Of a DNA stretch of 20,000 bases, positions 6,999-19,975 are shown one piece after another; position 1 is the first letter of the stretch; each line of letters starts with the position of its first letter. Under the pieces are notes generated by a model. It did not search any database, was not told where the DNA came from, and saw nothing but the letters and a program-made list of their open reading frames with translations. The stretch comes from an uncultured bacterium (lineage in GTDB: Bacteria > B130-G9). The position numbers were made by a program, and so were the translations under genes. The DNA lies in assembly GCA_965372715.1 (NCBI GenBank), contig CBDVDH010000001.1:107717-127716 (forward strand), written 5' to 3'.

Positions 6999-7010
6999 CG
7001 GACTTTGCTG

Positions 7011-8462
7011 ATGAGTGAGCGGATCGTCGAGAACTCCGCTCGAATGACTCTGTTACAGGTCTGCGGCATAGTCGCGAACTCTGTCCTTTACTTCATTCTG
7101 GCGAGGATGCTGGGCTCCTCAGACTATGGCGTTGCGAGCTGCACGGTATTCCCGGCGCTTGCGCTGTTGAGAACCGGCGTCTTTGGGGCCCTCATGTTCG
7201 GAACCGCAAAAGTCATAGCGGCCAATCCCGAGGCAATCCGGTCCTGCATCTCAGTCTCGCGAAAGGCATACGCCATCGTCGGGGGCATTCTTGTCGTAGT
7301 GTTCGTCGGGTTTGCCGGTCCGATAGCAGGTCTGCTGCGAGACCCTTCGCTCACGCATTATTTCCGCCTGATGGCACTAGCTGTCCCGCCGGTCGCGGCA
7401 TTCGTTCTATTCCAGGGGACGCTCGTCGGCCTAGAGGACTTCCGCTCGGCTATGCGCCTCGGGATGCTATTCCAGGTTCTCAAGCTCGTCCTGACGGTCG
7501 CGCTGGTGCTCATCGGCGCGAAGGTTTACGGCCTCATCTTCGGGTTCGCGATCTCCTGCGTCATCTCATTGCTCGTCTTTCGCCGCAAGACCCAGCCGAC
7601 CGCAAGAGATAAGGCGATTACACTGCCCTATTACCTATCAACCGTGGCGGGCATTTTCGTCACTTTTGCCATCGCAATCGCTCAAAGATACGTCAATCTA
7701 TGGAACCTGAAGCGAATCGTTTTCGACAACCAGACCGTGGCCTACTACTCAGTCGCCAATCAACTCGCGTCCATGCCCGCTTTGATCTTCACCGGGGTCA
7801 TGGTCGCGCTATGGCCGGCGATCTCGGGACTGGCAAATGCCCCCGACCTCTCGCTCGCAAGGGAGCATCTCAGCAAATCGTTCAAATACACCATGATCGG
7901 TCTGCTCCCCATCTCTGCGCTTCTGGCTGCTTTGCCGAATTACGCCATACGCCTCGCATTCGGCGCCGAATACGCCGCGGCTGCGAGCGTTCTCCCCATC
8001 CTTGTCATAGGCCTCGTTCTCCTGGCTCTCCAATCAGTAATCATGTCGGCGATGCTGGCCCTCGGTAAGGTCAAGAGCACGACCAGCATTATCGGCGGCG
8101 CCACAGTCGCGGCGTTCCTTGTCGGCACGCTGCTCATTCCTAGATTTGGCATTATGGGCGCGGCCGCGACGGAGGTCATGGGCTTTCTAGTTAGCTCGGC
8201 GCTCGTCGCTGTCGTCTCGTGGCGCACGTTCGGTAAGTTCACCTCGCTCGCCGAGGCGGGGAAGATCACAGCCTGTGCCGCCGTCCTATTTCTGACTGTG
8301 CGTGCGTTTGCCTTCCTGGGCTATTGGGTCGCTCCCGTCATCGTCGTCGCGCTCTGCCTCTATCTTCTGACGCTGACGATACTCGGAGTCCTCCCGACCG
8401 ATGGGATAAGGGCCACGCTCTCGCGCATTTGCATCCTCACCGCCCGAAGAGAGACCGAGTAA
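7011..8462 (+). CDS. Oligosaccharide flippase / polysaccharide biosynthesis protein (Wzx-like, MOP superfamily)
   Basis: About 12-14 hydrophobic segments. Motifs LARMLGSSDYG, VAYYSVANQL, FGAEYAAA and LIPRFGIMGAA. Confidence 0.85.
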   Translation: MSERIVENSARMTLLQVCGIVANSVLYFILARMLGSSDYGVASCTVFPALALLRTGVFGALMFGTAKVIAANPEAIRSCISVSRKAYAIVGGILVVVFVGFAGPIAGLLRDPSLTHYFRLMALAVPPVAAFVLFQGTLVGLEDFRSAMRLGMLFQVLKLVLTVALVLIGAKVYGLIFGFAISCVISLLVFRRKTQPTARDKAITLPYYLSTVAGIFVTFAIAIAQRYVNLWNLKRIVFDNQTVAYYSVANQLASMPALIFTGVMVALWPAISGLANAPDLSLAREHLSKSFKYTMIGLLPISALLAALPNYAIRLAFGAEYAAAASVLPILVIGLVLLALQSVIMSAMLALGKVKSTTSIIGGATVAAFLVGTLLIPRFGIMGAAATEVMGFLVSSALVAVVSWRTFGKFTSLAEAGKITACAAVLFLTVRAFAFLGYWVAPVIVVALCLYLLTLTILGVLPTDGIRATLSRICILTARRETE

Positions 8463-8463
8463 A

Positions 8464-8497
8464 GCTGAAGGCGGAAGGATGAATCATTCATTAGAGC
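8464..8497. repeat. Left inverted repeat of the island (8464-8483) overlapping trailer repeat copy 1 (8474-8497)
   Basis: GCTGAAGGCGGAAGGATGAA is the reverse complement of 14215-14234 at 18/20. GAAGGATGAATCATTCATTAGAGC recurs at 9918 and 10473. Confidence 0.75.
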
Positions 8498-8517
8498 GCT
8501 CTTAGCGTCTTCGTGCT

Positions 8518-9714
8518 TCATTTCTCTCCATTGGCGCCATTCATGGCAAGCCTCGGCGACAGGAACGCCAGAATCAGCTCTTTGTGTGCCTGATAGCCCC
8601 GGGGGGTCTTCACAATTAAACCGGCGTCGCAAAGCGAATTGACATCTCTCGCGAGTGTTCTCGCAGTCTTATTGGCATACGCACGAGCGAGCTTTGGACT
8701 GACATCCGGCAACGCAGAAAGCGGGACCGGGTCCCTCAAGGGAGAGAGATCGAGCGCCAAATGCCGCTGTCGTCTTGCCGTCTCAGATCGCTTGTCTCTG
8801 AAGAATTCGTGAACGTAATTCCGCCATGTGACATCCCACTGCTGCTCCCAGATGACCCCTAATTGCAGGCTCAGACCATCCAAGAATCCCCCAATCGCGT
8901 ATCTCATGAACGGCACGACGTCGCCGCCTCTCTTGCTGGCGAGATCTAGCTGCCTGTAGTATTCCGTCCGCGTGAGATTGTAATGATTACTTAAGAGGTG
9001 CGCAGACGCTGCAGGCACCCCGGACGAGATCAGAATCTGGAACTCGAGGAGGCGAGCGGTTCGTCCGTTGCCATCTCCAAAAGGGTGAATCCAGGCGATA
9101 TACAGATGAGCAACAACGGCCTTAAGAATGGCAGTAGCTATCCCACCCAGGCCATCCCTGGGTGAGAAATCAGCGCTGTTGAGCCACTTGCAGACTCTAT
9201 CAAGAAGGTGCTCACCGTCCTCCGCCGGTGCGCCTCGATAACGGCCCACCGTCACACCCTTGGTGCGCAGCTGACCAGGGCGGAGGTCGTCATCTAACTC
9301 AAGGCCGCGAAGCACCATCCTATTCATCTCACAGATCATTCCCGTCGTGATCTCCGAGGTTTGTCCGCTCCCGACAAGTTTGAAGATCTCGTTACCCGCG
9401 TGGATGATGTTGTCAATCTCTTGCCGTAGATACTCCCGCGACGGAGGGAGTTTCAGCTCTCCGGCCAGATGCTGTAGAACCTCCTCCTCACTGAGAGTAT
9501 TTCCCTCGATTGCGGTCGTGGCTAAGACACCCTTCGCCAAATACATTCTGTAGAGCTCCTTGGCGGTATCTGGTCGAAGCGGCACGCGGGCAATGTGCTC
9601 ACATTTGGATTGGCACTCCCCAAGCATTATCCAGAACGTCGCGGGCGCAGACCTGAGATCGGCAGAGAACTTAAGCCAGGGATGTGTCGATAGATATGTC
9701 CTATTTTCTGTCAT
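8518..9714 (-). CDS. Fic family protein (class II-like) with a C-terminal winged-HTH
   Basis: Canonical HPFGDGNGRTAR, inhibitory-type motif TTAIEGN, and C-terminal ARTLARDVNSLCDAGLI. Confidence 0.92.
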   Translation of the reverse strand: MTENRTYLSTHPWLKFSADLRSAPATFWIMLGECQSKCEHIARVPLRPDTAKELYRMYLAKGVLATTAIEGNTLSEEEVLQHLAGELKLPPSREYLRQEIDNIIHAGNEIFKLVGSGQTSEITTGMICEMNRMVLRGLELDDDLRPGQLRTKGVTVGRYRGAPAEDGEHLLDRVCKWLNSADFSPRDGLGGIATAILKAVVAHLYIAWIHPFGDGNGRTARLLEFQILISSGVPAASAHLLSNHYNLTRTEYYRQLDLASKRGGDVVPFMRYAIGGFLDGLSLQLGVIWEQQWDVTWRNYVHEFFRDKRSETARRQRHLALDLSPLRDPVPLSALPDVSPKLARAYANKTARTLARDVNSLCDAGLIVKTPRGYQAHKELILAFLSPRLAMNGANGEK

Positions 9715-9773
9715 CTGACGAGCGCCCCTAAACGCTTTCTAATAGGCATGGTATGATTTTATATCACCTATTC

Positions 9774-9830
9774 TGTCATAAGAATTGTCATACATAATGT
9801 CATAATGACCTGGCCAGATCATTATGTCAA
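9774..9830 (-). promoter_or_regulatory. fic promoter with operator-like repeats
   Basis: Minus-strand TTGACA (9830-9825), 17 nt, CATTAT. TGTCATA occurs three times at a 12-bp period (9774, 9786, 9798). 26-bp near-perfect palindrome at 9801-9826. Confidence 0.6.
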
Positions 9831-9895
9831 GAAAGATGTGATGCGAGAAATGAATCCCTAGCTCAATTGGGCGTAGCTTCCGCCAGTCCGCCTCT

Positions 9896-9956
9896 GGAAA
9901 GATGAAGGATGAAATATGAAGGATGAATCGTCCATTAGAGCCGCAATCCGAAATCG
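9896..9956. repeat. Heptamer tandem repeat and trailer repeat copy 2
   Basis: GATGAAG GATGAAA TATGAAG GATGAA. 9918-9941 matches 8474-8497 at 22/24. Confidence 0.75.
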
Positions 9957-9972
9957 ATGATCGCTGACCCGC

Positions 9973-10185
9973 TCAGCGCGCCAAAGGAACCGTTTCGAAC
10001 AGGAGTCTTCGGGCATCCGCGGCGGGCGCCCGCTTGGACAGATGTAACATCTCAATGCCAACGACGCGGCCGTCTGCTCCATAATCCAGAATAACGCCGG
10101 GCGATACTTCCTCCGATTCCGCTGCCTGGGCATCCGACAAGGTCAGATACAGGGCGTCCGCCTCTTCATCGATCCTTAGTATCAT
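9973..10185 (-). CDS. DUF2283 family protein (putative antitoxin)
   Basis: DEEADALYLTL...ESEEVSPGVILDYGADGRVVGIEML signature. The start overlaps the upstream stop (ATGA). Confidence 0.88.
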   Translation of the reverse strand: MILRIDEEADALYLTLSDAQAAESEEVSPGVILDYGADGRVVGIEMLHLSKRAPAADARRLLFETVPLAR

Positions 10186-10432
10186 TTCAGTTTCTTCTTT
10201 CCTCGGTCGAAGTACGCTGTCACCACGCTCGGTTCAGCGCCCTTCATATTAACTACGACACGAAGGACTCTGCCGCCGAAATCCGCAACACGCAACAGAC
10301 GATGCTCCAGGTCCGAATCAAGCCGGTCTGGCTCCTTGTCTTCGGGAGAAACAAGAGCCTCCTCCACCCATTCTAGCGCATTCCCCTTTTGACAATAGCC
10401 TCTCGAGCGTGCTCAGGCAGGACGTATTTCAC
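10182..10432 (-). pseudogene. DUF4258 family putative toxin, frameshifted
   Basis: GTG 10432 gives MKYVLPEHAREAIVKRGMR*. Restoring one base near 10380 gives ...KRGxALEWVEEALVSPED...GRVLRVVVN..VVTAYFDR, a full DUF4258-like protein. Confidence 0.78.
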
Positions 10433-10498
10433 TTATCCTTCATCCTTTCTGCAAGGCTAAATTATGAGGGCTGAAGAGTGAATCATCAATCAGAGCGC
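10433..10498. repeat. Inter-module junction: inverted heptamer copy and trailer repeat copy 3
   Basis: ATCCTTCATCCTT at about 10435-10447. GAAGAGTGAATCATCAATCAGAGC (10473-10496) matches 8474-8497 at 19/24. Confidence 0.65.
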
Positions 10499-10539
10499 CC
10501 TTCACTTTTGCGCAAAGCTCCGTCATTGCCGCACCTCGT

Positions 10540-10938
10540 TCAGCCCTGCCTAGCCTTTGCTTGGACTTGGCTTATCAGCTTGAGCGCCTTGTCCAAATCT
10601 GCCTTGATCTCCTCGTGCTCATATTCGGCAGGAGGCCCGGGCGGATAACGCCCATCAATGTAATAGCGAGACGCTTTCTCGCAAAGCTCTAGAAAATCGC
10701 CGAAGTCATCATCGAAGCTCGCGATGTGATTGAGAAGCGCGTCAAGTTCGTGCGTCTTTGGCGGCTTCCTGCCATGAAGAACGAGGTAGCCTTTCAGATA
10801 CTTCTCGATCGCCTGCTGAATGTGATACACAATAGAATCTGTGTGACCGCGCTGCTCGTAGATTAACTGCGCCGTTTCTATGTCGTGCTGACCTCTTTCG
10901 AACCACTCCTCGGCTTGTCTCTCGAAGGCCTCATCCAT
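10540..10938 (-). CDS. HEPN domain protein
   Basis: HIQQAIEKYLKGYL..PPKTHELDALL..YIDGRYP. The start overlaps the end of the MNT gene. Confidence 0.9.
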   Translation of the reverse strand: MDEAFERQAEEWFERGQHDIETAQLIYEQRGHTDSIVYHIQQAIEKYLKGYLVLHGRKPPKTHELDALLNHIASFDDDFGDFLELCEKASRYYIDGRYPPGPPAEYEHEEIKADLDKALKLISQVQAKARQG

Positions 10939-11260
10939 AGAGCAGCTCTCCCCTCTCAAGTATCTCTTCGACGAAGAAATCCCTCATCGCAATTCTGTTT
11001 TCGATCTCTTTCTCAGTGTAAACAAGGGGAGACACCGACAGCCGCCGGACGCGGTCCCGGACAAGCCTTTTCACCTCAAGCCATCTCTCAATGGGCCTCT
11101 TCTCCGTGTCCTTGATGATCAGGAGGTCAACGTCGCTATCCTCGTTTGGCTCGCCGTAAGCATAGGAACCGAAAAGAATCACCTTCTTGGGCCCATATCC
11201 CTCGACTACCCTCTGAACGATCTCAAGGATTACCTCTCTCAGTCTTCCATCGACTATCAC
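10931..11260 (-). CDS. Minimal nucleotidyltransferase (MNT), HEPN partner
   Basis: VILFGSYAYGEPNEDSDVDLLII (GS..DxD) and C-terminal EILERGELLYG. Confidence 0.92.
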   Translation of the reverse strand: MIVDGRLREVILEIVQRVVEGYGPKKVILFGSYAYGEPNEDSDVDLLIIKDTEKRPIERWLEVKRLVRDRVRRLSVSPLVYTEKEIENRIAMRDFFVEEILERGELLYG

Positions 11261-11314
11261 ACTGGTACCTCCAACAGCTTCGTCGTATCGTTCCCAGATA
11301 TGTCAACCACCTTG
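11257..11314 (-). repeat. Second copy of the methyltransferase 3' tail (58-bp direct repeat)
   Basis: 50/58 identical to 13099-13156. Encodes KVVDISGNDTTKLLEVPV*. Confidence 0.88.
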
Positions 11315-13102
11315 TTCTGGAAGCCGGAGGAAGGCCTGCACAATGTCAAGCATCTCATGTCTTTCCGCCCCGTTGTCCATGTATTTGTCCCGTTCAAGAA
11401 GCTGATCCGCGGTCATTAGGCCGATCGCGTTAATCACTTCCTTGTTGAACTTCTTGAGATCTGTGAAATCGCCGCAATCGGGGGAGGGATCTCGGCAGAC
11501 TCGCTTCACGGCGTCCGGATGCAAGTAATTCTCGATCTCCCTTTTCTTTGTTATGAAGAAAACCCCACCCTCAGCTTTGCAGCTGGCCTCCCAGTTGCGT
11601 TTTTTCTGGTCAATGGGCTGGTCTGGGCTTTCTTTGTCGCTGTCGATTAAGACTCCGTACCGCACACTGAGGTTACGGAGTGCTTTACGCGCAACCCAAT
11701 GCTGCAGAGAATCCTTTCCACCGAGCGGGATCAGGCCAATTCTTGCCTCATCCAATGTTCTATCTATTCGTCCGGCGTTCTTTAAGAGCTTGGAGGCCCG
11801 GGTAAGAAACTTAACGTCACCCTCGCCCTCGACGAACACGCACGCTCTATAGCCGATTATCCGGTCGCACGGCTCGACACCCAGCTCGCGAGCTAGCTCT
11901 ACGAGATCAAGGGCGGTGCCCTGCAAGATTTCGCCGACTCCATCTTGTCTGCGTACCAAGACCAGGTTTTGCTGGTCCGTGGAGCCCGCAAATACCGGCG
12001 AGTGAGACGAGATGAGGACTTGGCCCTCGCGGGCGATTTCGGCAAAGGAACTCAGCAGCACGCGCTGGGCGCCTGGGTGTAGATAAGTCTCTGGTTCCTC
12101 TACAGCGAAGATCCGGCCGTGGATTTCAAGGCCCTCGCTTCTTCGCTGAGCAAGATACTGAAAATACGCAACCATGAGGAGCCGTCGTAGTCCGGATCCC
12201 CTTTTGCCGAAAGCAATTGCCTGACCTTGTGCGTCGGTGCATTCAATGCGGAACTTCACGAGATCTTTCCAGCTAAATGAGGGGTCTGGCCTCATGGAGG
12301 CCACCTCATCCGTATGCTCCTTGAGAAGAGAGTGAATCTTCTGGACCTCGTTGTCTATCCGCTCGGTAAGGCCGCGCTCGATCAAGTCCCTCCCCTCAAT
12401 GTCGTGCACAGCCGTTTCGACGACTTCTTTGAACTTGCTCTGGAATGTCGTCTCCTCCTCACTCAGCCGGTAATCAGCAGGGAATAGTGTGAACTGCGGC
12501 AGGTAGGGGCCGATCCTGTTGAGAACTCTTTCCACCTTCTCAAGCTGCCTGCGGGATTTCTGAATTCCTCGTTTGTTTGCCACCTCGCGCAGGACCTCTC
12601 GTTTGTCCTTGTTGGTGATGGCTCTCCCAGACTTCTTGAAATCGAGATGGTATGTCTGGCCGCGCTTGTTCAACTCGGGCTCCTTCAGGGAGCAGAGGTT
12701 GGAGAATTGATCATCCTCGAAGTCCTGAGCGATGATGGACTCCGCCGGTTTCTTCGTCTTCTTGCTTAGGCTATCCGGGGTGAAGGTCTTCCTTATCGTG
12801 AGTAGTCCCTCTTCGTCTAGCAGGTTTTCTGAGGAGAGTGTCGTTGGCACCCCATCCTCGAGTTCCAGTGCCTCCGGAAGGTCAGAAAAAGACACCTCAA
12901 TCGACAATGCACATCCTTGGCCGGCTCCCTTTGTTAGATCCTCCTGGTCCGGAGAGCCATTGAAGAAAATCTCCAGAGCATGAAGGATGCTGGACTTGCC
13001 CGAGTCGTTCTTGCCAACCAGTGTGGTAATATCCCCTACCCTTATCTCCGTTCTCTCTGCAAAGCACCTAAACCCCTCCAACGCGATCTTGGCGATTCTC
13101 AT
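11303..13102 (-). CDS. OLD-family ATP-dependent endonuclease (ABC ATPase + TOPRIM; GajA-like)
   Basis: Walker A GKNDSGKS, RGSGLRR, Walker B/D-loop AVEEPETYLHP, H-loop SSHSP, TOPRIM FVEGEGD...DSD and KREIENYL. GGAGGT RBS precedes ATG 13102. Confidence 0.87.
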   Translation of the reverse strand: MRIAKIALEGFRCFAERTEIRVGDITTLVGKNDSGKSSILHALEIFFNGSPDQEDLTKGAGQGCALSIEVSFSDLPEALELEDGVPTTLSSENLLDEEGLLTIRKTFTPDSLSKKTKKPAESIIAQDFEDDQFSNLCSLKEPELNKRGQTYHLDFKKSGRAITNKDKREVLREVANKRGIQKSRRQLEKVERVLNRIGPYLPQFTLFPADYRLSEEETTFQSKFKEVVETAVHDIEGRDLIERGLTERIDNEVQKIHSLLKEHTDEVASMRPDPSFSWKDLVKFRIECTDAQGQAIAFGKRGSGLRRLLMVAYFQYLAQRRSEGLEIHGRIFAVEEPETYLHPGAQRVLLSSFAEIAREGQVLISSHSPVFAGSTDQQNLVLVRRQDGVGEILQGTALDLVELARELGVEPCDRIIGYRACVFVEGEGDVKFLTRASKLLKNAGRIDRTLDEARIGLIPLGGKDSLQHWVARKALRNLSVRYGVLIDSDKESPDQPIDQKKRNWEASCKAEGGVFFITKKREIENYLHPDAVKRVCRDPSPDCGDFTDLKKFNKEVINAIGLMTADQLLERDKYMDNGAERHEMLDIVQAFLRLPEQGG

Positions 13103-13449
13103 ACTGTCACCTCCCAAAGCTTCGTCGTATCGTTGCCGAATATGTCAACCACCTTGACCAGAATCTTGTACCAGCCAGGCTCTTCGTAAGTATGCGACGC
13201 GCTTGTCTGAAGCTTCGGCTGTTTGCGCGTCCTGAAGGACTGCCAGCCGTTGCGGAAACGCCCTTGTTTTTTGTCGTCGCGGGCGCTGTGCGTGAAGAGC
13301 TCTCGCTGCGCCTTCTCGCGGTCGGCCTTCGATTCGTTGACGCTCTCGACGACCTGAAAGGGCAGTATCGTCCTGTCAACCTTCCTGAGCTCGCCGTTCT
13401 CGTCATACTTGCCCTTCCAGACAAGCTCCGTCCTCTCAACGCCTTTCAT
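13099..13449 (-). pseudogene. Internally deleted type III-like site-specific DNA methyltransferase remnant (116 aa, in frame)
   Basis: N-terminus TELVWKGKYDENG...LPFQVVESVNES is fused to C-terminus WQSFRTRK..L...HTYEEPGWYKILVKVVDIFGNDTTK. Both ends are characteristic of these methylases, and no DPPY/F or FxGxG motif remains. Confidence 0.75.
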
Positions 13450-13457
13450 TGCTCGCG

Positions 13458-13625
13458 ATCCTCCAATCTCCAGTCTCCAGACCGTAGTCTTCAGCCTCCA
13501 GCAAGTGCAGAGCATTGGAACACAGGTTTGGCGATGGATCAAGGCTTGTCGGCGTCTCGGAGTGTGCCTGAGGGAAGGTCATTCGCCGTCCCTACAAGAG
13601 CAGACGCGGGGGTCTGCCCCTACAA
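13458..13625. repeat. Leader repeat copy A: heptamer run, 55-bp conserved block and two GTAG-type REP palindromes
   Basis: 13501-13555 matches 14238-14292 at 46/55. 13584-13625 matches 14310-14351 at 39/42. AGTCTCC-like heptamers at 13458-13499. Confidence 0.85.
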
Positions 13626-13719
13626 TATCACAGTTCGGCCTCCACAAGTGAGGGACATCTGCTAATGTGCATATCGTTAGTGTCAGGCCGGACCTTGGCT
13701 TTAGCCGTGGCATGTCCCC

Positions 13720-13950
13720 TCACAATAGATCGCGAAACTCTTCAGCATTCAGCCCCATATCCTCCAAGATGCCTGCCAAGGTCTTGCGCTTGATGGTCTT
13801 TCCTACAAGCATGGGCACCACTATCCTGGCCCGGTCTCTCTCCCGGTAGTAAACGGCGTGGCTTCCTTTCTGACGGTCAAAGACGAATCCCACCTTTAAG
13901 GCTGCCCTGACCACTTCCCTGCCTGTCACGATAGGGAGCTTAGGACTCAA
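13720..13950 (-). CDS. hicA: HicA family toxin
   Basis: LPIVTGREVVRA..KVGF..DRQKGSH...IVVP....IKRKTLAGIL. The TTG start overlaps the hicB stop. Confidence 0.9.
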   Translation of the reverse strand: MSPKLPIVTGREVVRAALKVGFVFDRQKGSHAVYYRERDRARIVVPMLVGKTIKRKTLAGILEDMGLNAEEFRDLL

Positions 13951-14174
13951 AGGGCGACCTCTACTGGCTTGATGAAGATGTCCTCCACTGGCAGGGACTC
14001 GCCACGTGCGCGAAGACTCTCCAGGTACGCCTCAATCGCCTCCCTGACATTGGCGAGGGCCTCGTCCAGTGTGTCGCCCTGCGTGTGGCAACCTTTCAGG
14101 GTAGGGCAGAACGCGTGGTAGCCGCCCTCCTGTTCCCGCTCCAAAATAACCGTAAAATGATGCGTCTCCATCAT
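13947..14174 (-). CDS. hicB: HicB family antitoxin (short, no DNA-binding domain)
   Basis: VILEREQEGGYHAFCPTLKGCHTQGDTLDEALANVREAIEAYLE, with AGGAG/GGGAG RBS. Confidence 0.92.
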   Translation of the reverse strand: MMETHHFTVILEREQEGGYHAFCPTLKGCHTQGDTLDEALANVREAIEAYLESLRARGESLPVEDIFIKPVEVAL

Positions 14175-14201
14175 CTCCCTATCTCCTTAATCCGCAATCG
14201 G

Positions 14202-14351
14202 TCATCCTTCATCCTTCATCTTTCCGCCTTCATCCTTGCAGGTGCGAGGCATTGGAACACAGATTTGCGGCTGAATCAAGGCTTGTCGGCGTGTGCAGGG
14301 CGGGGCAAGCGCCGCCCCTACAAGGGCAGACACGGGGGTCTGCCCCTACAA
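14202..14351. repeat. Leader repeat copy B, including the right inverted repeat of the island (14215-14234) and two REPs
   Basis: TCATCCT heptamers, the conserved 55-bp block, and REPs at 14297-14322 and 14324-14350 (GTAGGGGC-stem on the minus strand). Confidence 0.85.
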
Positions 14352-14403
14352 CTTCGTCTTTGGCCCGTAGGGGAATCTGGCGTTAAGCGTCAACTGCTTA
14401 TGA

Positions 14404-14435
14404 AAGCGGGGACCCGGTGTGGCGGGTCCCGGCTT
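14404..14435. terminator. GC-rich stem-loop between the divergent blocks (possible terminator or attenuator)
   Basis: AAGC-G-GGGACCCG / GTGTGG loop / CGGGTCCC-G-GCTT, with only weak U-tracts. Confidence 0.35.
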
Positions 14436-14489
14436 GTGTCGAGAAACAGAGCGATAACGCAAAACGGAATCGAGGGCGAGGTGAGTCAG

Positions 14490-15893
14490 GTGGCGCAATC
14501 AGAGCTTGGGGTGCTTCAGAATGGGGGCGAATCGGGCGGGCGAGGGTCGAGCGGGACGGTTGTTTCGGGGGCGAGGCTGTCCAACTTGACGGAGGTCGCA
14601 AGCTTCAGGCGCTGGTATAACAACCGGGACGTTCGCATTCCGCTCTACGAGAGCATGACGGCGGCTCAGCTGTCGCTCAGGCTTCCTATCTCAATCGGTA
14701 TTCCCAGGCAGATAATTGACAACTCAGCTGATGCGTTGTTCGGCGACGGTCGTTTCACAGGTGTTCGAATGGTTGGCCCCGACGACGCGGAGAGCGCCCG
14801 GCTTCAGGCGCTGTGGGATAGGGTGTTCAGCGACAATTCCATGCGACAGCGGCTCCTGACCGACGCCATCGACACTAGCATCTGCGGCGGGATATTCTAC
14901 TCCATCAGTTACTGCCCGGCAGGCCCAAGCGTGTTCAAGGTGCAGTCCATTAGCTACGATCAGCTGTGGGACGTCGAGTTGGACGAGCTCGATACCGAGA
15001 AAGTGGTGGCCTACATCTTTCAGTGGGAGCAGCTCGAACGAGACTCGGGGGACGACCAGACGAGGCGCTGGTATCGCGTCGAGATAGACGCGGATAGGAT
15101 CGTGAGGATGCGCGCCGCTCGTCCACACACAGCAGGCAACGACGGCGAGGGGGTCGAGTTCGAGGTGACGAGCGTCTCGGAGCACAATCTCGGAATAATC
15201 CCGGTCGCACACGTCGCCAACTCCATCCAGCGGATGCGGACGGTCGGCGATTCGGACATCGCTCCTCTCGTCCCAATGCTTGACGCGCTCAATCAAATGA
15301 TGTCGGACGCCTATTGGCAGTGCTACAACGACCAGTCGATACTCAAGGCGATCAACATCGCGGCGCCGGACACTGATGACCTGGAAGAATCGGCCATTCG
15401 CCTCGGGGGAGACCAAATCCATTTCCTGACCCAGAACGAGCAGCTGAACCAGGACATCGTGCGGATGAAGCCAGTCGGCATTCCCGAGAGCTTTTTCAGG
15501 ACGATTGATCTCCTCGTGGGCCAGATTTACAGGACTGCGGGTGAGTCTCATCTTGACCCGCTCAAGTGGACGGGGACCAACATCTCAGGCGTCGCGCTTC
15601 GGTTGCTTTATGAGCCGCTGGCCAAGAAAACGTATCGAAAGCGTATTTACTGGGCGTCGGGACTCGAGCGGCTCGCCAAGATCATATTCGCCTACGCTAA
15701 CTCCAAATCGGTCGTGTTGTCGGAGTCTGGCGGCTTCGTGCTTGGTGGCCCCCAATACCAACTGGACGATATTGAAGTCCTCTGGGGTTCCCTGATGCCT
15801 GGCGATGAGGTCGAAGAGCAAAAGCTGGTTCTGGACGACCTTTCGGCCGGCCTGATCGGTGTGGATGAGGCCAGGCGCAACCGGGGACTATAG
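14490..15893 (+). CDS. Phage portal protein (SPP1 gp6-like)
   Basis: IIDNSADALFG, HNLGIIPVAHVAN...GDSDIAPLVPMLDALN, NISGVALRLLYEPL..K and IEVLWGSLMPGDE motifs. GAGGTG RBS precedes GTG 14490 (about 467 aa); start is approximate. Confidence 0.82.
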   Translation: MAQSELGVLQNGGESGGRGSSGTVVSGARLSNLTEVASFRRWYNNRDVRIPLYESMTAAQLSLRLPISIGIPRQIIDNSADALFGDGRFTGVRMVGPDDAESARLQALWDRVFSDNSMRQRLLTDAIDTSICGGIFYSISYCPAGPSVFKVQSISYDQLWDVELDELDTEKVVAYIFQWEQLERDSGDDQTRRWYRVEIDADRIVRMRAARPHTAGNDGEGVEFEVTSVSEHNLGIIPVAHVANSIQRMRTVGDSDIAPLVPMLDALNQMMSDAYWQCYNDQSILKAINIAAPDTDDLEESAIRLGGDQIHFLTQNEQLNQDIVRMKPVGIPESFFRTIDLLVGQIYRTAGESHLDPLKWTGTNISGVALRLLYEPLAKKTYRKRIYWASGLERLAKIIFAYANSKSVVLSESGGFVLGGPQYQLDDIEVLWGSLMPGDEVEEQKLVLDDLSAGLIGVDEARRNRGL

Positions 15894-15899
15894 AAGTCG

Positions 15900-15965
15900 T
15901 TCGAAGTTCAAGGTTGAAAGTTCAAGGTTGAGGGTCGGCTGTAGGGGCGATTCACGAATCGCCCT
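15900..15965. repeat. Heptamer run and GTAG-type REP
   Basis: TTCGAAG TTCAAGG TTGAAAG TTCAAGG TTGAGGG, then GTAGGGGCGATTC-AC-GAATCGCCC at 15941-15964. Confidence 0.8.
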
Positions 15966-16022
15966 TAGATTGAAAGGGGCGGATAGACGCCTGGAACGCA
16001 TTGAAAAACAAGGGAGGTTTGG

Positions 16023-16520
16023 ATGGCAGATCAGGAAACAGTCGAGGAGAGAGTGGAAGCAGGCGCTGAGGTTGAGGCGGCTGCCGAGGAATCTGAGCTG
16101 AATAGGGAAGAGGTTGAGCCCGGCCCTTCCGACGATAGGGCGGAGCTTCTGCGGCGAGCGGTGTTCGCTGAGGAGGCGCTGGAGCTCTCGCGTTATATTG
16201 GGGACAGGAACCTCTTGCAGCGGCTTCGTAGTGTGATTGCTGGCCAGACGGAGGTTGAGCTCAAGCAGAAGCTTTCAGTCTTGAAGGATGTTCTGGCGCA
16301 TATCAAGGAATCTCAGGGCGGCGACCGGCCCACCCAGGAGAGTTTCAAAGAGATGGTCGCAAGCGAGGTTCAGCGGAATCTCGATCAACTCAATAATGCC
16401 GCGGAGACGGTCGATGCGGCGGTCGGCCAGATGCCAGGCGGCAGCAGCCTGGCCGTGAAGGATAGCGCCGCATCGCGGCTGAGGCGCCTGGCTAGGGTGA
16501 GAGGCATCCTCATCAAGTAG
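16023..16520 (+). CDS. Putative capsid scaffolding protein
   Basis: Acidic N-terminus, helical body and basic C-terminus. Lies between portal and capsid genes. GGGAGG RBS. Confidence 0.5.
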   Translation: MADQETVEERVEAGAEVEAAAEESELNREEVEPGPSDDRAELLRRAVFAEEALELSRYIGDRNLLQRLRSVIAGQTEVELKQKLSVLKDVLAHIKESQGGDRPTQESFKEMVASEVQRNLDQLNNAAETVDAAVGQMPGGSSLAVKDSAASRLRRLARVRGILIK

Positions 16521-16562
16521 TTCCAAGTTTCGAGTTTGAAGTTCCAAGTTTCAGGTTCAAGG
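16521..16562. repeat. Six-unit heptamer tandem repeat
   Basis: TTCCAAG TTTCGAG TTTGAAG TTCCAAG TTTCAGG TTCAAGG immediately after the stop codon. Confidence 0.8.
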
Positions 16563-16593
16563 CATGAAAGCAATATAGGAGGAGGAAGAGAAG

Positions 16594-17016
16594 ATGGCGT
16601 GGAAGAACAAGGACGCTCGGGGCAGCTGGGAGGCGGTAGCGAGCGTTGACGTTGAAGAGAATGAACTGATGCACATCACCACTGACGGCAAGACTGTGCT
16701 TGCCGACGCCTCAAGCGCCGTTGCGCGGGAGGCGCACGGTTTCGCTGCGCTTCGTGGTTACGAGGCTAGCGAGCGCGCGACGCTCGTGCGCAGTGGGAAG
16801 ATAGCGGGGATAACCGACGACGCTGGCGACCCGTTGACGACCGGGTCGATCTATTATCTGAGCGAGACGCCCGGCAAGATCACGGCCACCAAGCCGACCG
16901 CGGACGGCGACGTGATTCAGGTTGTAGGCGTTGCTGCGGGACCCAACGAGCTCAATATCTCGATTGGGCCGGCGTTTGTGGTCGCAAGTTCAGGAACCTT
17001 TCTACGGGCTCTCTAA
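16594..17016 (+). CDS. Capsid decoration/cement-like protein (DUF2190-like)
   Basis: LADAS...AHGFA...LTTGSIYYLSETPGKITATKP..GDVIQVVGVA pattern. Strong RBS, directly before the major capsid gene. Confidence 0.65.
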   Translation: MAWKNKDARGSWEAVASVDVEENELMHITTDGKTVLADASSAVAREAHGFAALRGYEASERATLVRSGKIAGITDDAGDPLTTGSIYYLSETPGKITATKPTADGDVIQVVGVAAGPNELNISIGPAFVVASSGTFLRAL

Positions 17017-17078
17017 TCGACGCCCGTAGTAACCCACTGAACGACACCAGGTAACACAAAGCATGGAAGGGGAATACA

Positions 17079-18140
17079 TTGGCTACATTTGACAGCTATC
17101 AGTATCGTGGCGGCGTCTATGTGGGCGGCGTTTACGGGACTGACACGGATATTGACTGGCGGCAGGTCCTCAAGGACGTTCAGGGCCTTGCGAAGGCCTA
17201 TAACGACCGAGATGTCTCGGGTCTTGCGGACCGCTTGACTCACAAGACGACGAGCGAGGCAGTCAAGCAAGAGATAAACCGCCTGGTCGCAAAGGAGGTC
17301 GCCGAGGGGCGCGAGCCGGATGTCGAGTCCACGAGCGTCTATGAGTTTGCCCTACCGATCAAGGAGTTTGAGGTAGGGTTCTCGATGACGAGAACCGCCC
17401 AGAAGAGGATCGATCCGAGAAGGATAGAGAACCTCTTCGCCAGCGTGATTCAGGCGCATCTTCAGCAGCGGCTCAAGAACGCACTGACGCCCGTTTTCTC
17501 CACCAACCCGGCGGGCAGTGAGTGGGGAGGGACGTGGCAGGTGAACACCGACTGCCCTGATTTCCAGGCGAACTCGTTCTTTGGCACGCCGCACACTCAC
17601 ATTTTTGCCAGGACCGCGACCAGCCTGACGTTCGATCATCTGCGGATGCTGGCCGAGGAGATACAGCATCATGGTTTCGGCGCACCGGGCGTCTATGGTG
17701 AGAAGACCCTGCTGCTTCTGTTGAACGTAGCTCAGGCAAATGACTTAATCCAGCTCGCAGACTGGACAACATACTCAGGACTGCCTGACTCTGTCGTTGA
17801 ACGACTCGCGCTCGACGGGATCAACGTCAATCAGGGCATAGGTGGGTTCATCGTCAACGTCAACAACATGATTCCGGAGAACTACGCGGTTGCCATCGCT
17901 CTCGACACGCCGTATCCGGCGGTCACGACACGCGTTGAGCGGCAGCGTCAGTATCAGGGGCTCGTGATTGAGACGCCATTTGAGGGCTCGCAGTATCCGT
18001 TCCGCGATTCTGTGTTCACGTTTTCGGAGGGCTGCACATTGACGCAGCCGAGCGCGGTTGCGGTTCTCATGCTTGGCGCCGATGACAACAGCACGGACGA
18101 GGACATCAGCGATTATGTAGTGCCCGAGTTCTACGCGTAG
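17079..18140 (+). CDS. Putative major capsid protein (HK97-like fold)
   Basis: 353 aa with an EVAEGREP...LPIKEFEVGFSMTR E-loop-like segment and P.F....F...HTH...L.EEIQHHG. Position fits the head module. TTG start after GGAAGGGG. Confidence 0.68.
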   Translation: MATFDSYQYRGGVYVGGVYGTDTDIDWRQVLKDVQGLAKAYNDRDVSGLADRLTHKTTSEAVKQEINRLVAKEVAEGREPDVESTSVYEFALPIKEFEVGFSMTRTAQKRIDPRRIENLFASVIQAHLQQRLKNALTPVFSTNPAGSEWGGTWQVNTDCPDFQANSFFGTPHTHIFARTATSLTFDHLRMLAEEIQHHGFGAPGVYGEKTLLLLLNVAQANDLIQLADWTTYSGLPDSVVERLALDGINVNQGIGGFIVNVNNMIPENYAVAIALDTPYPAVTTRVERQRQYQGLVIETPFEGSQYPFRDSVFTFSEGCTLTQPSAVAVLMLGADDNSTDEDISDYVVPEFYA

Positions 18141-18154
18141 AAAGGGGAATTGAC

Positions 18155-18538
18155 GTGAACGCTTCAGACTTCGAGGTAAGGCTCCGGGCAGTGCTTTCGG
18201 ACCTTTCGGAACAGCTTACGGACGGGCAATTCGAGCAGGCGATCGCTTCTGCGACCGATATAACAGGGATTTCACTGCCGACAAGCGATCCGGAGATGAT
18301 CGAGGCGCTGCTCAACAGGGGTGAGGCGATCTGTCTTGAGACGCTTCAAAACGACTGGCTGCCGCGGTTCGACGTGACGTATGCGGGGGACAAGCTCTCA
18401 CGGGCGGATGTGGCGGAGCAGATCGAGCGGAAGTTGGCACGGCTTGACACGCGTTGGGAGGTTCTCTCGGGGCGATACAAGCCCAGCGCCGAGCGCGGCT
18501 CAAGGAATGTCTCTGTTAGCACGGCATATCGGGTCTGA
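18155..18538 (+). CDS. Putative head-tail adaptor/connector
   Basis: 127-aa helical protein right after the capsid gene, with VRLRAVLSD..EQLTDGQFEQAI resembling connector N-termini. Confidence 0.5.
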   Translation: MNASDFEVRLRAVLSDLSEQLTDGQFEQAIASATDITGISLPTSDPEMIEALLNRGEAICLETLQNDWLPRFDVTYAGDKLSRADVAEQIERKLARLDTRWEVLSGRYKPSAERGSRNVSVSTAYRV

Positions 18539-18550
18539 GGGGACTTTTCG

Positions 18551-19270
18551 ATGGCACGCGAGTCGGACGGGTCAAGAGAGAGATCGCAGCTATTTCGCGA
18601 CATTCATCAAGCAAGTAACGAAGCGCGACAGATTGGGGGTTGGCAGAAGGCGTCCATAAGGCGGCTTATTCAGAGCGATTCACCCGGCATCGGTCTGCCG
18701 CCGACGGACGCCTACTCCAGCGGCCTCATCGATCTGAAGGTCTGCGCCTCATCCGTGCCGCAGGAGCTCTGCGACGGGCCAGTCGCCTCGACAACAAATG
18801 CGGCCATGCGGTTTGAATTCTGGAACGTCGAGGTGTTTCTGGGTGACGAGGTCCTGTTCGACGGTGATGCTTACGATGTGAGGCAGATCGAGGATAGAAC
18901 GCCAAGCGTTCTTCTAGCGAGCGTCGAGACTCAGAGCGGCGTCGTCGTGCTAAAGGCGAACGATGCTCCTGAGGAACCAGTCGCAGCGATGTGTATCGTC
19001 AGCACAAAGCCCGCGGGTCAGGTCTCGTTCAAGCTCGAATACACGGATGGGAACGGTGAGGAGACGGTCTCGGACGCGATCACATTTGCTACGGACTGCA
19101 AGGTGGGCGATTCTCAGGTGATTACGACCGGCGGCGAGGAGGCGGCTGTGGCCTCTTTACAGGATATCACGGAGTTCGAGGGCGAGCTCGGTGGCGGCGT
19201 GCTGAGGATTACGGATAATTGCCCCTTCAGAACGCGCGTGCTGGCCGAACGACGAGTTGGCGGCCAATAA
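18551..19270 (+). CDS. Putative head-closure (stopper)-like protein with an internal insertion
   Basis: Synteny, GDEVLFDGDAYDVRQIED and terminal RTRVLAERR, with about 105 extra residues between them. Confidence 0.42.
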   Translation: MARESDGSRERSQLFRDIHQASNEARQIGGWQKASIRRLIQSDSPGIGLPPTDAYSSGLIDLKVCASSVPQELCDGPVASTTNAAMRFEFWNVEVFLGDEVLFDGDAYDVRQIEDRTPSVLLASVETQSGVVVLKANDAPEEPVAAMCIVSTKPAGQVSFKLEYTDGNGEETVSDAITFATDCKVGDSQVITTGGEEAAVASLQDITEFEGELGGGVLRITDNCPFRTRVLAERRVGGQ

Positions 19271-19371
19271 GTTCGCCTCGCCGTACGGCGGAGTCTGAGA
19301 TGAACGGCGAATTAGCGGTTGATGAGGCCGACTTCTGAATCCCGCACTGACATCTACTATGGAGAACGGAC

Positions 19372-19881
19372 ATGACATTGCCAGATAGCGCGAAACCGCG
19401 GAACAAGCGGCTGTCGTTCTACAAGTTCGTTGTCGATAATCTGTCGGACGACGTGCCAGTCATCGTTCAGGGATGCTCCGACCTATTTGGTGGATGGGTT
19501 GATCCTCGGACCGTTGACTCGCTCTCGAGCTGGATCGAGCTGTTGGTTGACAGCTTTTCTGGCGGCCTGAACTCCAAGATGAGGGTCAGGTTCGTCGTCA
19601 ACGTTCGTGAAAACCGCGACGACGAGAACTTCCAGATGAAGCGCATGGACGAGGTGCTCGGGGCGATCTTATCGCTTCTCAATCTCTCGGGCGGTGCAGT
19701 CATTCCCATTTACGACTTCTCGGATCCGGCCAACCCCGAGAGCATCGGCGAGGCACAGGGCCTCGGCTTCATTCCTCGGCACACGCCCGAAAAGGACGGA
19801 TTCGTGGATGATGACGGAGGTGTGAAGCGCTATGAGCTCCACTACGAGCTTTGGCTCTGGCAGGAGGGCGTGGCGCCTTGA
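19372..19881 (+). CDS. Putative tail terminator / neck protein
   Basis: Synteny and size. SWIEL...VRFVVNVR...MDEVLGAILSLL...IPIYDF...RYELHYEL pattern. GGAG RBS. Confidence 0.45.
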   Translation: MTLPDSAKPRNKRLSFYKFVVDNLSDDVPVIVQGCSDLFGGWVDPRTVDSLSSWIELLVDSFSGGLNSKMRVRFVVNVRENRDDENFQMKRMDEVLGAILSLLNLSGGAVIPIYDFSDPANPESIGEAQGLGFIPRHTPEKDGFVDDDGGVKRYELHYELWLWQEGVAP

Positions 19882-19949: not shown

Positions 19950-19975
19950 TGTAGGGGCGGTGCTTGCCCCGCCCT
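19950..19975 (+). repeat. GTAG-type REP palindrome
   Basis: TGTAGGGGCGGTGCTTGCCCCGCCCT is 25/26 identical to the reverse complement of 14297-14322. Confidence 0.85.

Follow-up and report, generated by a model that had tools for sequence, protein, structure and literature searches.

Integron cassette arrays, and the clusters of attC sites without an integrase that are known as CALINs, consist of small co-oriented cassettes, many of them toxin-antitoxin (TA) pairs, each followed by an imperfect palindrome. In the pdif modules of Acinetobacter plasmids, gene modules that include TA pairs are bounded by short XerC/D sites in inverted pairs, and the recombinase is not encoded inside the module. 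Campbell-type insertion-duplication and deletion between direct repeats are recognized by a duplicated gene end or leader that brackets the added block, and by relatives that have one repeat copy and no block. For core defence hotspots, such as cDHS1 of Pseudomonas aeruginosa, one published account proposes transfer, with subsequent homologous recombination in the flanks, as the route (Johnson et al. 2023, PMC10250203). The present analysis concerns an array of defence and TA genes, bordered by short repeats, at positions 8,464 to 14,351 of a 20,000-nucleotide stretch of DNA (the window) from an uncultured bacterium of a Candidatus Coatesbacteria family. The locus is probably an ordinary defence/TA turnover hotspot remodelled by general recombination, repeat-mediated deletion and insertion-duplication included. 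The border repeats are best read as by-products of the history of the hotspot and of the genome's own intergenic repeats, not as a new integron-like machine.

The window forms the final 20 kb of a 127.7-kb contig in a metagenome-assembled genome (MAG; hereafter G000) of 3.56 Mb in 112 contigs, 95.9% complete. Nine genes, all on the minus strand, lie between a plus-strand flippase gene and a plus-strand phage portal gene; they were identified by Pfam scans of the window's open reading frames (ORFs), by PADLOC defence models and, for phage genes, by PHROG. Read in their own direction, they begin with a hicB-hicA TA pair (hicB 14174-13947, hicA 13950-13720; Pfam HicB_lk_antitox E 2.4e-10, HicA_toxin E 1.2e-15), followed by a 117-aa remnant of a Type III methylase (mod) gene (13099-13452; PADLOC MTase_III E 3.2e-14) and a gene for an OLD-family ATPase-TOPRIM nuclease (11303-13102; Pfam AAA_15 E 5.5e-43; PADLOC AriA 4.7e-42, Old 3.5e-32, GajA 2.4e-28), whose OLD-like_TOPRIM score of 22.6 bits falls just below the Pfam cut-off of 23.2. 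An MNT-HEPN pair comes next (MNT 11260-10931, HEPN 10938-10540; Pfam NTP_transf_2 E 8e-12, HEPN E 5e-24), then a toxin-type DUF4258 gene (10182-10430) with its putative antitoxin partner DUF2283 (9973-10185; Pfam E 2.9e-18), and last a Fic-domain gene (8518-9714; Pfam Fic E 1e-14, PADLOC SoFic E 1.7e-54) that resembles SoFic, a single-gene defence system. The DUF4258 gene is frameshifted in G000, where Pfam DUF4258 covers its C-terminal part only: one base is lost near 10379, the ORF is intact in the sister genome, and a contig from public run X2 has an extra base after 10379. An initial annotation of this DNA had described the modules as co-oriented and every boundary as carrying one of three repeat families. 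Both observations hold, the first for hicBA, the methylase remnant, OLD, MNT-HEPN, DUF4258-DUF2283 and Fic, the second at seven of seven module borders. The PADLOC search that it proposed matched MTase_III, OLD-type (AriA, Old, GajA) and SoFic models at the locus.

Conserved genes enclose this cargo on both sides. On the left, the Wzx-type polysaccharide flippase gene (7005-8462, plus strand; Pfam Polysacc_synt_3 E 1.2e-14) is convergent with the cargo, and its product is 94% identical in G001, a sister genome from the same genus, and 48-65% identical in full-length matches from other genera. On the right, the portal gene (14640-15893, plus strand; Pfam SPP1_portal E 6.5e-16, PHROG portal E 1.9e-20; 95% nucleotide identity in G001) opens a cluster of phage head genes that is conserved throughout the family. 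The comparison set comprised six other genomes of the family, and close comparison of the site is limited to one congeneric genome (G001) and three close metagenome contigs (L067, L068 and L069). Public sequencing runs supplied further contigs from related populations; six runs matched, each with at most 0.09 of sampled words, and four were compared.

Cargo differs in every close relative examined, in agreement with the variability that the initial annotation had claimed. G001, L067, L068 and L069 (flippase 83-95% identical at the amino acid level) each depart from G000 beside the flippase. In G001, L067 and the X2 contig (flippase 94-95%), DUF2283-DUF4258 directly adjoins the flippase and Fic is absent; DUF2283 is 93% identical in nucleotides in G001. 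Beyond this pair, the G001-type arrangement continues with two unrelated small genes, a truncated hicA, hicB and the portal gene, the region being split over two contig ends in G001. L068 (flippase 87%) has a different MNT-DUF86 pair and another gene beside the flippase, and no Fic. L069 (flippase 83%) has Fic in the same place (79% nucleotide identity), then a 23S-IVP gene and a Type ISP restriction gene. Farther away, in G002 (flippase 63%; contig G002:C167) and on a contig from run X4, a methylase tail is followed directly by MNT-HEPN, without OLD. The hicBA genes recur in G002 and G006 at 86-87% nucleotide identity behind a different methylase remnant, with homology stopping at the gene limits. 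In four other genera the flippase and portal flanks are unlinked and the portal has other neighbours; the hotspot site is confined to one genus of the family. Contigs L070-L073 (63% flippase identity) match the window through the flippase region only and are uninformative on the hotspot.

Modules also appear to have moved between sites. The block tail-OLD-tail-MNT-HEPN sits between acd and fabD in G001, where OLD is 78% and MNT-HEPN 87.5% identical to the G000 copies, against 93-96% for the syntenic flanks. MNT-HEPN of G000 is 87.5% identical in nucleotides both to the copy on G001:C5 and to that on G002:C167, whereas the G001 and G002 copies are 91.4% identical to each other; these values disagree with the species grouping and indicate module exchange within the family. 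The acd-fabD gap is itself a second small hotspot, with a 113-nt gap in G000 (G000:C30:34817-34931), tail-OLD-tail-MNT-HEPN in G001 (L013, G001:C5), and a methylase remnant with hicBA in G003 (L017, G003:C27).

The site therefore resembles core defence hotspots as that account describes them (PMC10250203): diverse defence and TA systems occupy one position between conserved genes, content varies among close relatives, and no hallmark of a mobile element is present. The general signs of a defence hotspot are all found here, namely clustered defence/TA systems, variable content within conserved flanks, and no integrase or transposase at the site. In contrast to core defence hotspots, the locus is small (6 kb), its site is conserved in one genus only, its genes are strictly co-oriented, and a recognizable repeat stands at every border. 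The absence of a visible integrase or transposase, another claim of the initial annotation, was borne out: no recombinase or transposase domain was found in the window ORFs scanned (the window ends at the contig end, and DNA past the phage genes is unseen), and tyrosine recombinase PF00589 has no match on the 127.7-kb contig. Rfam gave no match in window positions 7500-15500.

The repeats at the borders have three unrelated origins: a dispersed hairpin, a REP-like (repetitive extragenic palindrome-like) hairpin joined to a local 55-nt block, and the ends of mod genes. The first is the source of the trailer repeat, for which the repeat search of the window gave copies at 8461-8497, 9905-9941 (78%) and 10460-10496 (73%). 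The trailer aligns to a conserved element of about 80-100 nt that consists of a GGATGAA-type heptad run, a conserved loop and a complementary heptad run ending in CCTTCCAGA. An nhmmer profile places this heptad hairpin at 15 loci in the genome (27 hits over two strands), eleven of them full copies. Four full copies were folded: three reach z scores of -2.6 to -3.5 (0-2 of 200 shuffles as good) and the fourth -2.0 (7 of 200). The copies at the locus, in contrast, do not fold better than shuffles (T1 z 0.07, T2 z +2.05, T3 z -0.27) and are half or decayed hairpins. T1 (8461-8530, minus strand; nhmmer E 4.8e-7) is a degenerate hairpin with loop and right arm at 8497-8461 and a weak left arm overlapping the end of Fic; its orthologue sits between Fic and flippase in L069. 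T2 (9886-9941, minus strand; E 2e-10) is a half hairpin, loop and right arm without a left arm, and its orthologue follows DUF2283 in G001. T3 (10428-10510, minus strand; E 3.1e-9) is a degenerate hairpin, after which a short run of purine heptads comes directly before DUF4258; no copy was found where MNT-HEPN ends in G001 or G002. An inverted heptad arm before hicB (14197-14246) is a lone member of the same family.

Away from the locus, the hairpin lies mostly beside housekeeping genes. Among the 20 ORFs flanking 10 other hairpin loci, 14 have Pfam matches and six have none; 13 of the 14 are of housekeeping type (purD, purH, ahcY, topA, der, MacB, LptD-like, two rSAM, two GT1, HAD and TPR) and one is of TA type (NTase_sub_bind). 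Two orthologous sites were compared in five relatives. The copy between ahcY and topA is present in G000 and G001 and absent in four of four genomes of other genera, where the gap measures 33-57 nt; G000, G001 and G002 have the copy between purH and purD, which G006, G004 and G003 lack, and its presence differs within one genus. This presence and absence at orthologous sites is the behaviour of a miniature transposable element with inverted repeats (MITE). Like MITEs and REP-type palindromes as treated in one paper (Delihas 2011, PMC3184786), the heptad hairpin is short, has inverted arms and occurs in many intergenic copies that are present or absent at orthologous sites. Unlike them, its arms are tandem heptads, no target-site duplication is evident at the two filled and empty sites compared, and no cognate transposase was found among the four Y1 transposase genes of the genome: hairpin ends flank none of the four, the search having covered this family and not other transposase families. 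G001 holds many more hairpin copies than G000, several at contig ends. In the ahcY-topA copy of G001 (L055, G001:C104), the right arm holds a further nested palindromic insert of about 46 nt, which suggests a second small mobile repeat.

Heptameric intergenic tandem repeats have been described from Xanthomonas and Nostoc (Rehm et al. 2015, PMC4692102). The repeats here share with them, as that report presents them, G-containing 7-nt words in few repeats, concentrated just after stops and before starts between co-oriented genes; they differ in their words, GGATGAA and GGATTGC, and in often forming two hairpin arms with a conserved loop. Tandem Repeats Finder lists 415 period-7 arrays genome-wide, and the two commonest families (21 and 19 arrays) are the two at the locus. 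The GGATGAA run at window positions 14078-14291 recruits very many contigs from marine and sediment metagenomes, and in run X5 the summed depth reaches 6868 at this run, against single digits in adjacent bins; such recruitment indicates that the word is abundant well beyond G000. An 8-nt direct repeat, GATTGCGG, at about 14197 (beside the lone heptad arm) and about 9945 (beside T2) was considered as a target duplication around a 4.3-kb insert in a split hairpin. It was rejected because it is part of the second heptad family, GGATTGC; this family is met again at many junctions, and no other period-7 family of the genome is as common.

The leader repeat is composite. Its two copies pair at 13501-13555 with 14238-14292 (84%) and at 13571-13625 with 14297-14351 (85%), and the homology runs on into degenerate heptads to about 13455. 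Leader A (13455-13625, minus strand) comprises REP-like hairpins (13625-13571), a 55-nt block (13555-13501) and degenerate heptads (13500-13455); leader B (14197-14351, minus strand) comprises a REP-like doublet (14351-14297), the block (14292-14238) and a purine heptad arm (14246-14197). The 55-nt block has two copies in G000, each the other's sole match genome-wide (E 1e-6 to 1e-10 for tails and blocks, far beyond chance). G001 has a single block, before hicB, whose first half resembles leader A and second half leader B, a reading made by eye over about 45 nt. The block reads like a promoter, with a -35 box, an extended -10 box and a more variable 17-nt spacer, likewise recognized by eye and not listed by the promoter scan. 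Across the locus, that promoter and terminator scan found site counts not above those of shuffles and listed only the promoter of Fic and a site inside T3.

The REP-like half of the leader is a genome-wide repeat: its head word occurs 319 times, against about 27 expected. Assignment to a system of REPs and REP-associated tyrosine transposases (RAYTs) was tried and rejected; the high-copy palindrome with a conserved head is there, and a REP-flanked RAYT gene is not, as none of the four Y1_Tnp genes in the genome has the leader's REP within 500 nt. The contig itself ends in a REP-like hairpin (window 19950-19975), and 48 of the 319 head words lie within 150 nt of contig ends, a clustering which indicates that these repeats break the assembly. 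Together with the trailer hairpin beside purD/purH, ahcY/topA and der, the spread of the leader's REP does not support reading the three repeats, after the initial annotation, as one boundary system; repeats equally common between housekeeping genes were an outcome that it had itself named beforehand as speaking against its proposal.

The third repeat derives from gene ends. The methylase tails at 11251-11314 and 13093-13156 are 84% identical over 64 nt and match only each other in a genome-wide search. Tail A (11251-11314, minus strand) contains the last 17 codons of a Type III mod gene and a GGAGG site, its stop overlapping the MNT start (GTGA), and the same junction is found on G001:C5. Tail B (13156-13093, minus strand) is the last 64 nt of the Mod remnant, its stop overlapping the OLD start (ATGA). 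The remnant is an N-terminal part fused to about 55 C-terminal codons: PADLOC MTase_III matches it in two stretches, the better at profile positions 561-613 of 616, a Pfam PKD_4 match is weak, and no N6_N4_Mtase match, and with it no catalytic methylase core, was found by Pfam in the 117-aa ORF. It is a gene remnant with an internal deletion. The C-terminal part matches a full-length methylase on G003:C28 (E 1.6e-8), and G003:C189 offers a possible, weakly matching counterpart of the N-terminal part (E 0.0018). The G003:C28 methylase has the same end peptide, and its stop overlaps the start of the gene behind it, which encodes a PD-(D/E)XK nuclease and is itself followed by an MNT-type pair.

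Family-wide, the genes found behind the tail are OLD, MNT, a Phd-like gene and HicB-like genes, each time with GGAGG and an ATGA or GTGA overlap. Where the methylase body has been lost, the 5' limits of the tail lie at -50, -44, -40 and -27 nt; this variation fits independent deletions that spared the translation signal of the next gene, not a fixed recombination site. From this arrangement we infer that the last 30-60 nt of mod genes were kept for what they contain, the ribosome-binding site of the next gene and its overlapping start codon. In another genus, contig G002:C167 (L014, 650-3200) has a co-oriented stack with the same border elements, in the order heptads, 43-nt methylase start, DUF7718, DUF5647, heptads, methylase tail, MNT, frameshifted HEPN, HicB-like gene, tail, Phd-like gene and HicB/HicA-like genes.

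Whether cargo changes at the repeats has a mixed answer. The initial annotation had proposed breakpoints inside the repeats, and two differences do end in or beside them. Fic, bracketed by T2 and T1, is absent from G001, L067 and the X2 contig, with a junction at the outer edge of T2 and inside T1; OLD, bracketed by the two tails, is absent from G002 and the X4 contig, where the joint runs from 11289 to 13143, inside the tails. Other breakpoints do not follow the repeats: they lie inside hicA (13831), 12 nt inside the end of HEPN (10552), at the Fic promoter (9831) and exactly at the limits of the hicBA genes. The Fic-less G001 sequence also retains T2-specific bases beyond the shared part, so its junction is not a simple product of a T1 x T2 crossover. 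Because L069, although more distant, has Fic and T1 as well, a Fic gene next to the flippase is probably the old state and its absence in G001 probably a loss.

Under the reading of the locus as an ordinary hotspot, the modules would be survivors of decayed operons, several of them once led by a Type III methylase gene, and they would have been gained, swapped and lost through general recombination. The routes we infer are allelic replacement through the conserved flanks once DNA has passed from one relative to another, insertion-duplication of the Campbell type, loss of the DNA between direct repeats, and illegitimate deletion. The direct repeats would act as deletion points and probably also as points of insertion-duplication. 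In contrast to a plain Campbell-type case, the repeat pairs are old (84-85% alike), and one such structure stands at a different site in another genome. The promoter-like block would mark the 5' end of two modules, and both it and the tail may serve expression. Nothing in the anatomy of the locus, the origins of its repeats or the variation among relatives, all of which can be read directly from the compared sequences, calls for a mechanism beyond general recombination.

Several findings weigh against this reading. Three hairpin copies and the lone arm fall within 6 kb (three of the 15 loci within 2 kb), where about 0.03 would be expected from 15 loci in 3.56 Mb. Such enrichment calls for a local cause, be it serial insertion-duplication, local hopping or tolerance of insertions, and is not predicted by general recombination alone. 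Four modules (hicBA, OLD, DUF4258-DUF2283 and Fic) each lie between a direct repeat pair, which is more regular than random decay predicts. By our own tally about 10 of the 16 points at which homology breaks off are no more than 20 nt away from a repeat, where repeats and margins cover about 13% of the interval, a count confounded with gene borders in that nearly all breakpoints lie near gene ends, where selection would place surviving ones anyway. Finally, three junctions are unique to G000 and have no independent contig: HEPN|T3|DUF4258, T2|Fic promoter and hicA|leader A|mod remnant.

The first alternative is a stacking of cassettes guided by the repeats: a module with one repeat copy would be excised as a circle and re-enter another copy by a single crossover, in one orientation and without a dedicated integrase. 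We regard it as unlikely, although the unexplained enrichment of hairpin copies and the regular bracketing of four modules keep it as a minority reading. The Fic-less and OLD-less forms, with joints in or beside repeats, are in its favour, as is the G001 block that is half leader A-like and half leader B-like, and the arrangement tail-OLD-tail is the expected leftover of a single-crossover insertion at the 3' end of mod. That arrangement is nevertheless old, being shared with MNT-HEPN at 78-87% identity, and the tail remnants differ in their 5' limits. Being short (37-64 nt) and no more than 73-85% alike, the repeats are poor RecA substrates; the T2-specific sequence kept at the Fic-less junction of G001 is not what a clean T1 x T2 exchange would leave, and the flippase-side flank of T1 resembles L069 and not G001, a point against any recent insertion at a site like that of G001. 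At its two sites the relocated OLD-MNT-HEPN block has no terminal repeat in common. Neither a circle nor a reciprocal joint was found in the public-run contigs, which come from other populations and could hardly show one. Joints in these runs that connect T1 with the heptad arm and leave out about 5.7 kb were examined as excisions and rejected; their sides measure only 23-26 nt, and they represent solo hairpins of other DNA. What stands of the integron-like stacking envisaged by the initial annotation is the variable cargo, the bracketed losses of Fic and OLD and the lack of a recombinase; the unrelated origins of the repeats, the variable tail limits and the scattered breakpoints do not fit it.

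An extended form of the same idea treats the hairpin and the retained operon ends as portable landing pads, where a module with one repeat copy circularizes and re-inserts at another copy, stacking cassettes in one orientation without an integrase, and where the incoming DNA could be supplied by the adjacent phage head cluster as a gene transfer agent; we hold it to be improbable. This cluster occupies window positions 14640-19881, with the portal gene at 14640-15893, syntenic in G001, and the major head protein gene at 17079-18140. The major head protein is single-copy in seven of seven family genomes at 85-99% amino acid identity, compared with 48-94% for the neighbouring flippase. From these patterns the cluster looks like a vertically inherited and domesticated, possibly gene transfer agent-like, element rather than a prophage.

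The hairpins might instead be the ends of a non-autonomous transposon, with cassettes between a purine arm and a loop plus pyrimidine arm being moved in trans by a transposase encoded elsewhere. The layout invites the idea, as purine arms stand before hicB and DUF4258, and DUF2283, HEPN and Fic are each followed by a loop with a pyrimidine arm; orthologous sites either have or lack the short element, the 23S-IVP gene of L069 lies between inverted heptad arrays of another heptad word, and four Y1 transposases are encoded in the genome. Neither the heptad hairpin nor the REP flanks any of these four genes, however, the apparent 8-nt target duplication belongs to the GGATTGC heptad family, no cassette turned up at another site between the same two arms, and the relocated OLD-MNT-HEPN block has no shared ends. 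On this balance we consider such a transposon quite improbable.

An assembly chimera, in which the assembler joined modules of different strains at shared repeats, is very improbable. The MAG is in 112 contigs, many of which end in these repeats, and the three junctions named above occur in G000 only; against this, the longest exact words common to repeat copies are shorter than 20 nt (read by eye), too short to merge assembly paths, and independent contigs confirm flippase-T1-Fic (L069), T2-DUF2283-DUF4258 (G001, L067, X2) and tail-OLD-tail-MNT-HEPN (G001:C5). Run X1, in addition, has four identical short contigs from the interval.

A degenerate integron array of the CALIN type, with the hairpins as diverged attC sites, is scarcely credible: the small cassettes are co-oriented, mostly promoter-less, rich in TA pairs and followed by imperfect palindromes, but the 95.9% complete genome has no integron integrase (best TIGR02249 score 71.6 bits against a cut-off of 265), the conserved hairpin ends read by eye as heptad runs and not as the RYYYAAC / GTTRRRY of attC inverse core sites, the hairpin is dispersed singly between housekeeping genes, and the three half or decayed copies at the locus do not fold. 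Two of the three repeat families at the locus are, moreover, not palindromes, unlike the elements behind integron cassettes. The locus likewise differs from pdif modules in that no dif-like site was noticed, no model search having been made.

Within the hotspot, the Fic gene is preceded by a promoter-like site (9802-9830, minus strand) with TTGACA, a 17-nt spacer and CATTAT, matching at 10 of 12 positions; repeated ATGACA words follow this site. ATGACA-containing words occur three to four times in the Fic promoter region (9715-9830) and are conserved in L069 (7500-7620; 79% overall identity); they are possibly an operator.

As a probable ordinary hotspot remodelled by general recombination, the locus advises caution, in that the genome-wide spread of repeats should be checked before a repeat-delimited gene stack is called a new recombination system. 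It also brings to light two things that may deserve study in their own right, a heptad-hairpin family of repeats that is new and a phage head cluster with a major head gene found in all seven family genomes. For the biology of this barely studied candidate phylum, it offers a compact and readable example of a defence hotspot that would have been built from decayed restriction-modification operons, in which the ends left by dead genes, together with a mobile intergenic hairpin, come to stand as marks at the borders of modules and may then serve as points of deletion and insertion-duplication.

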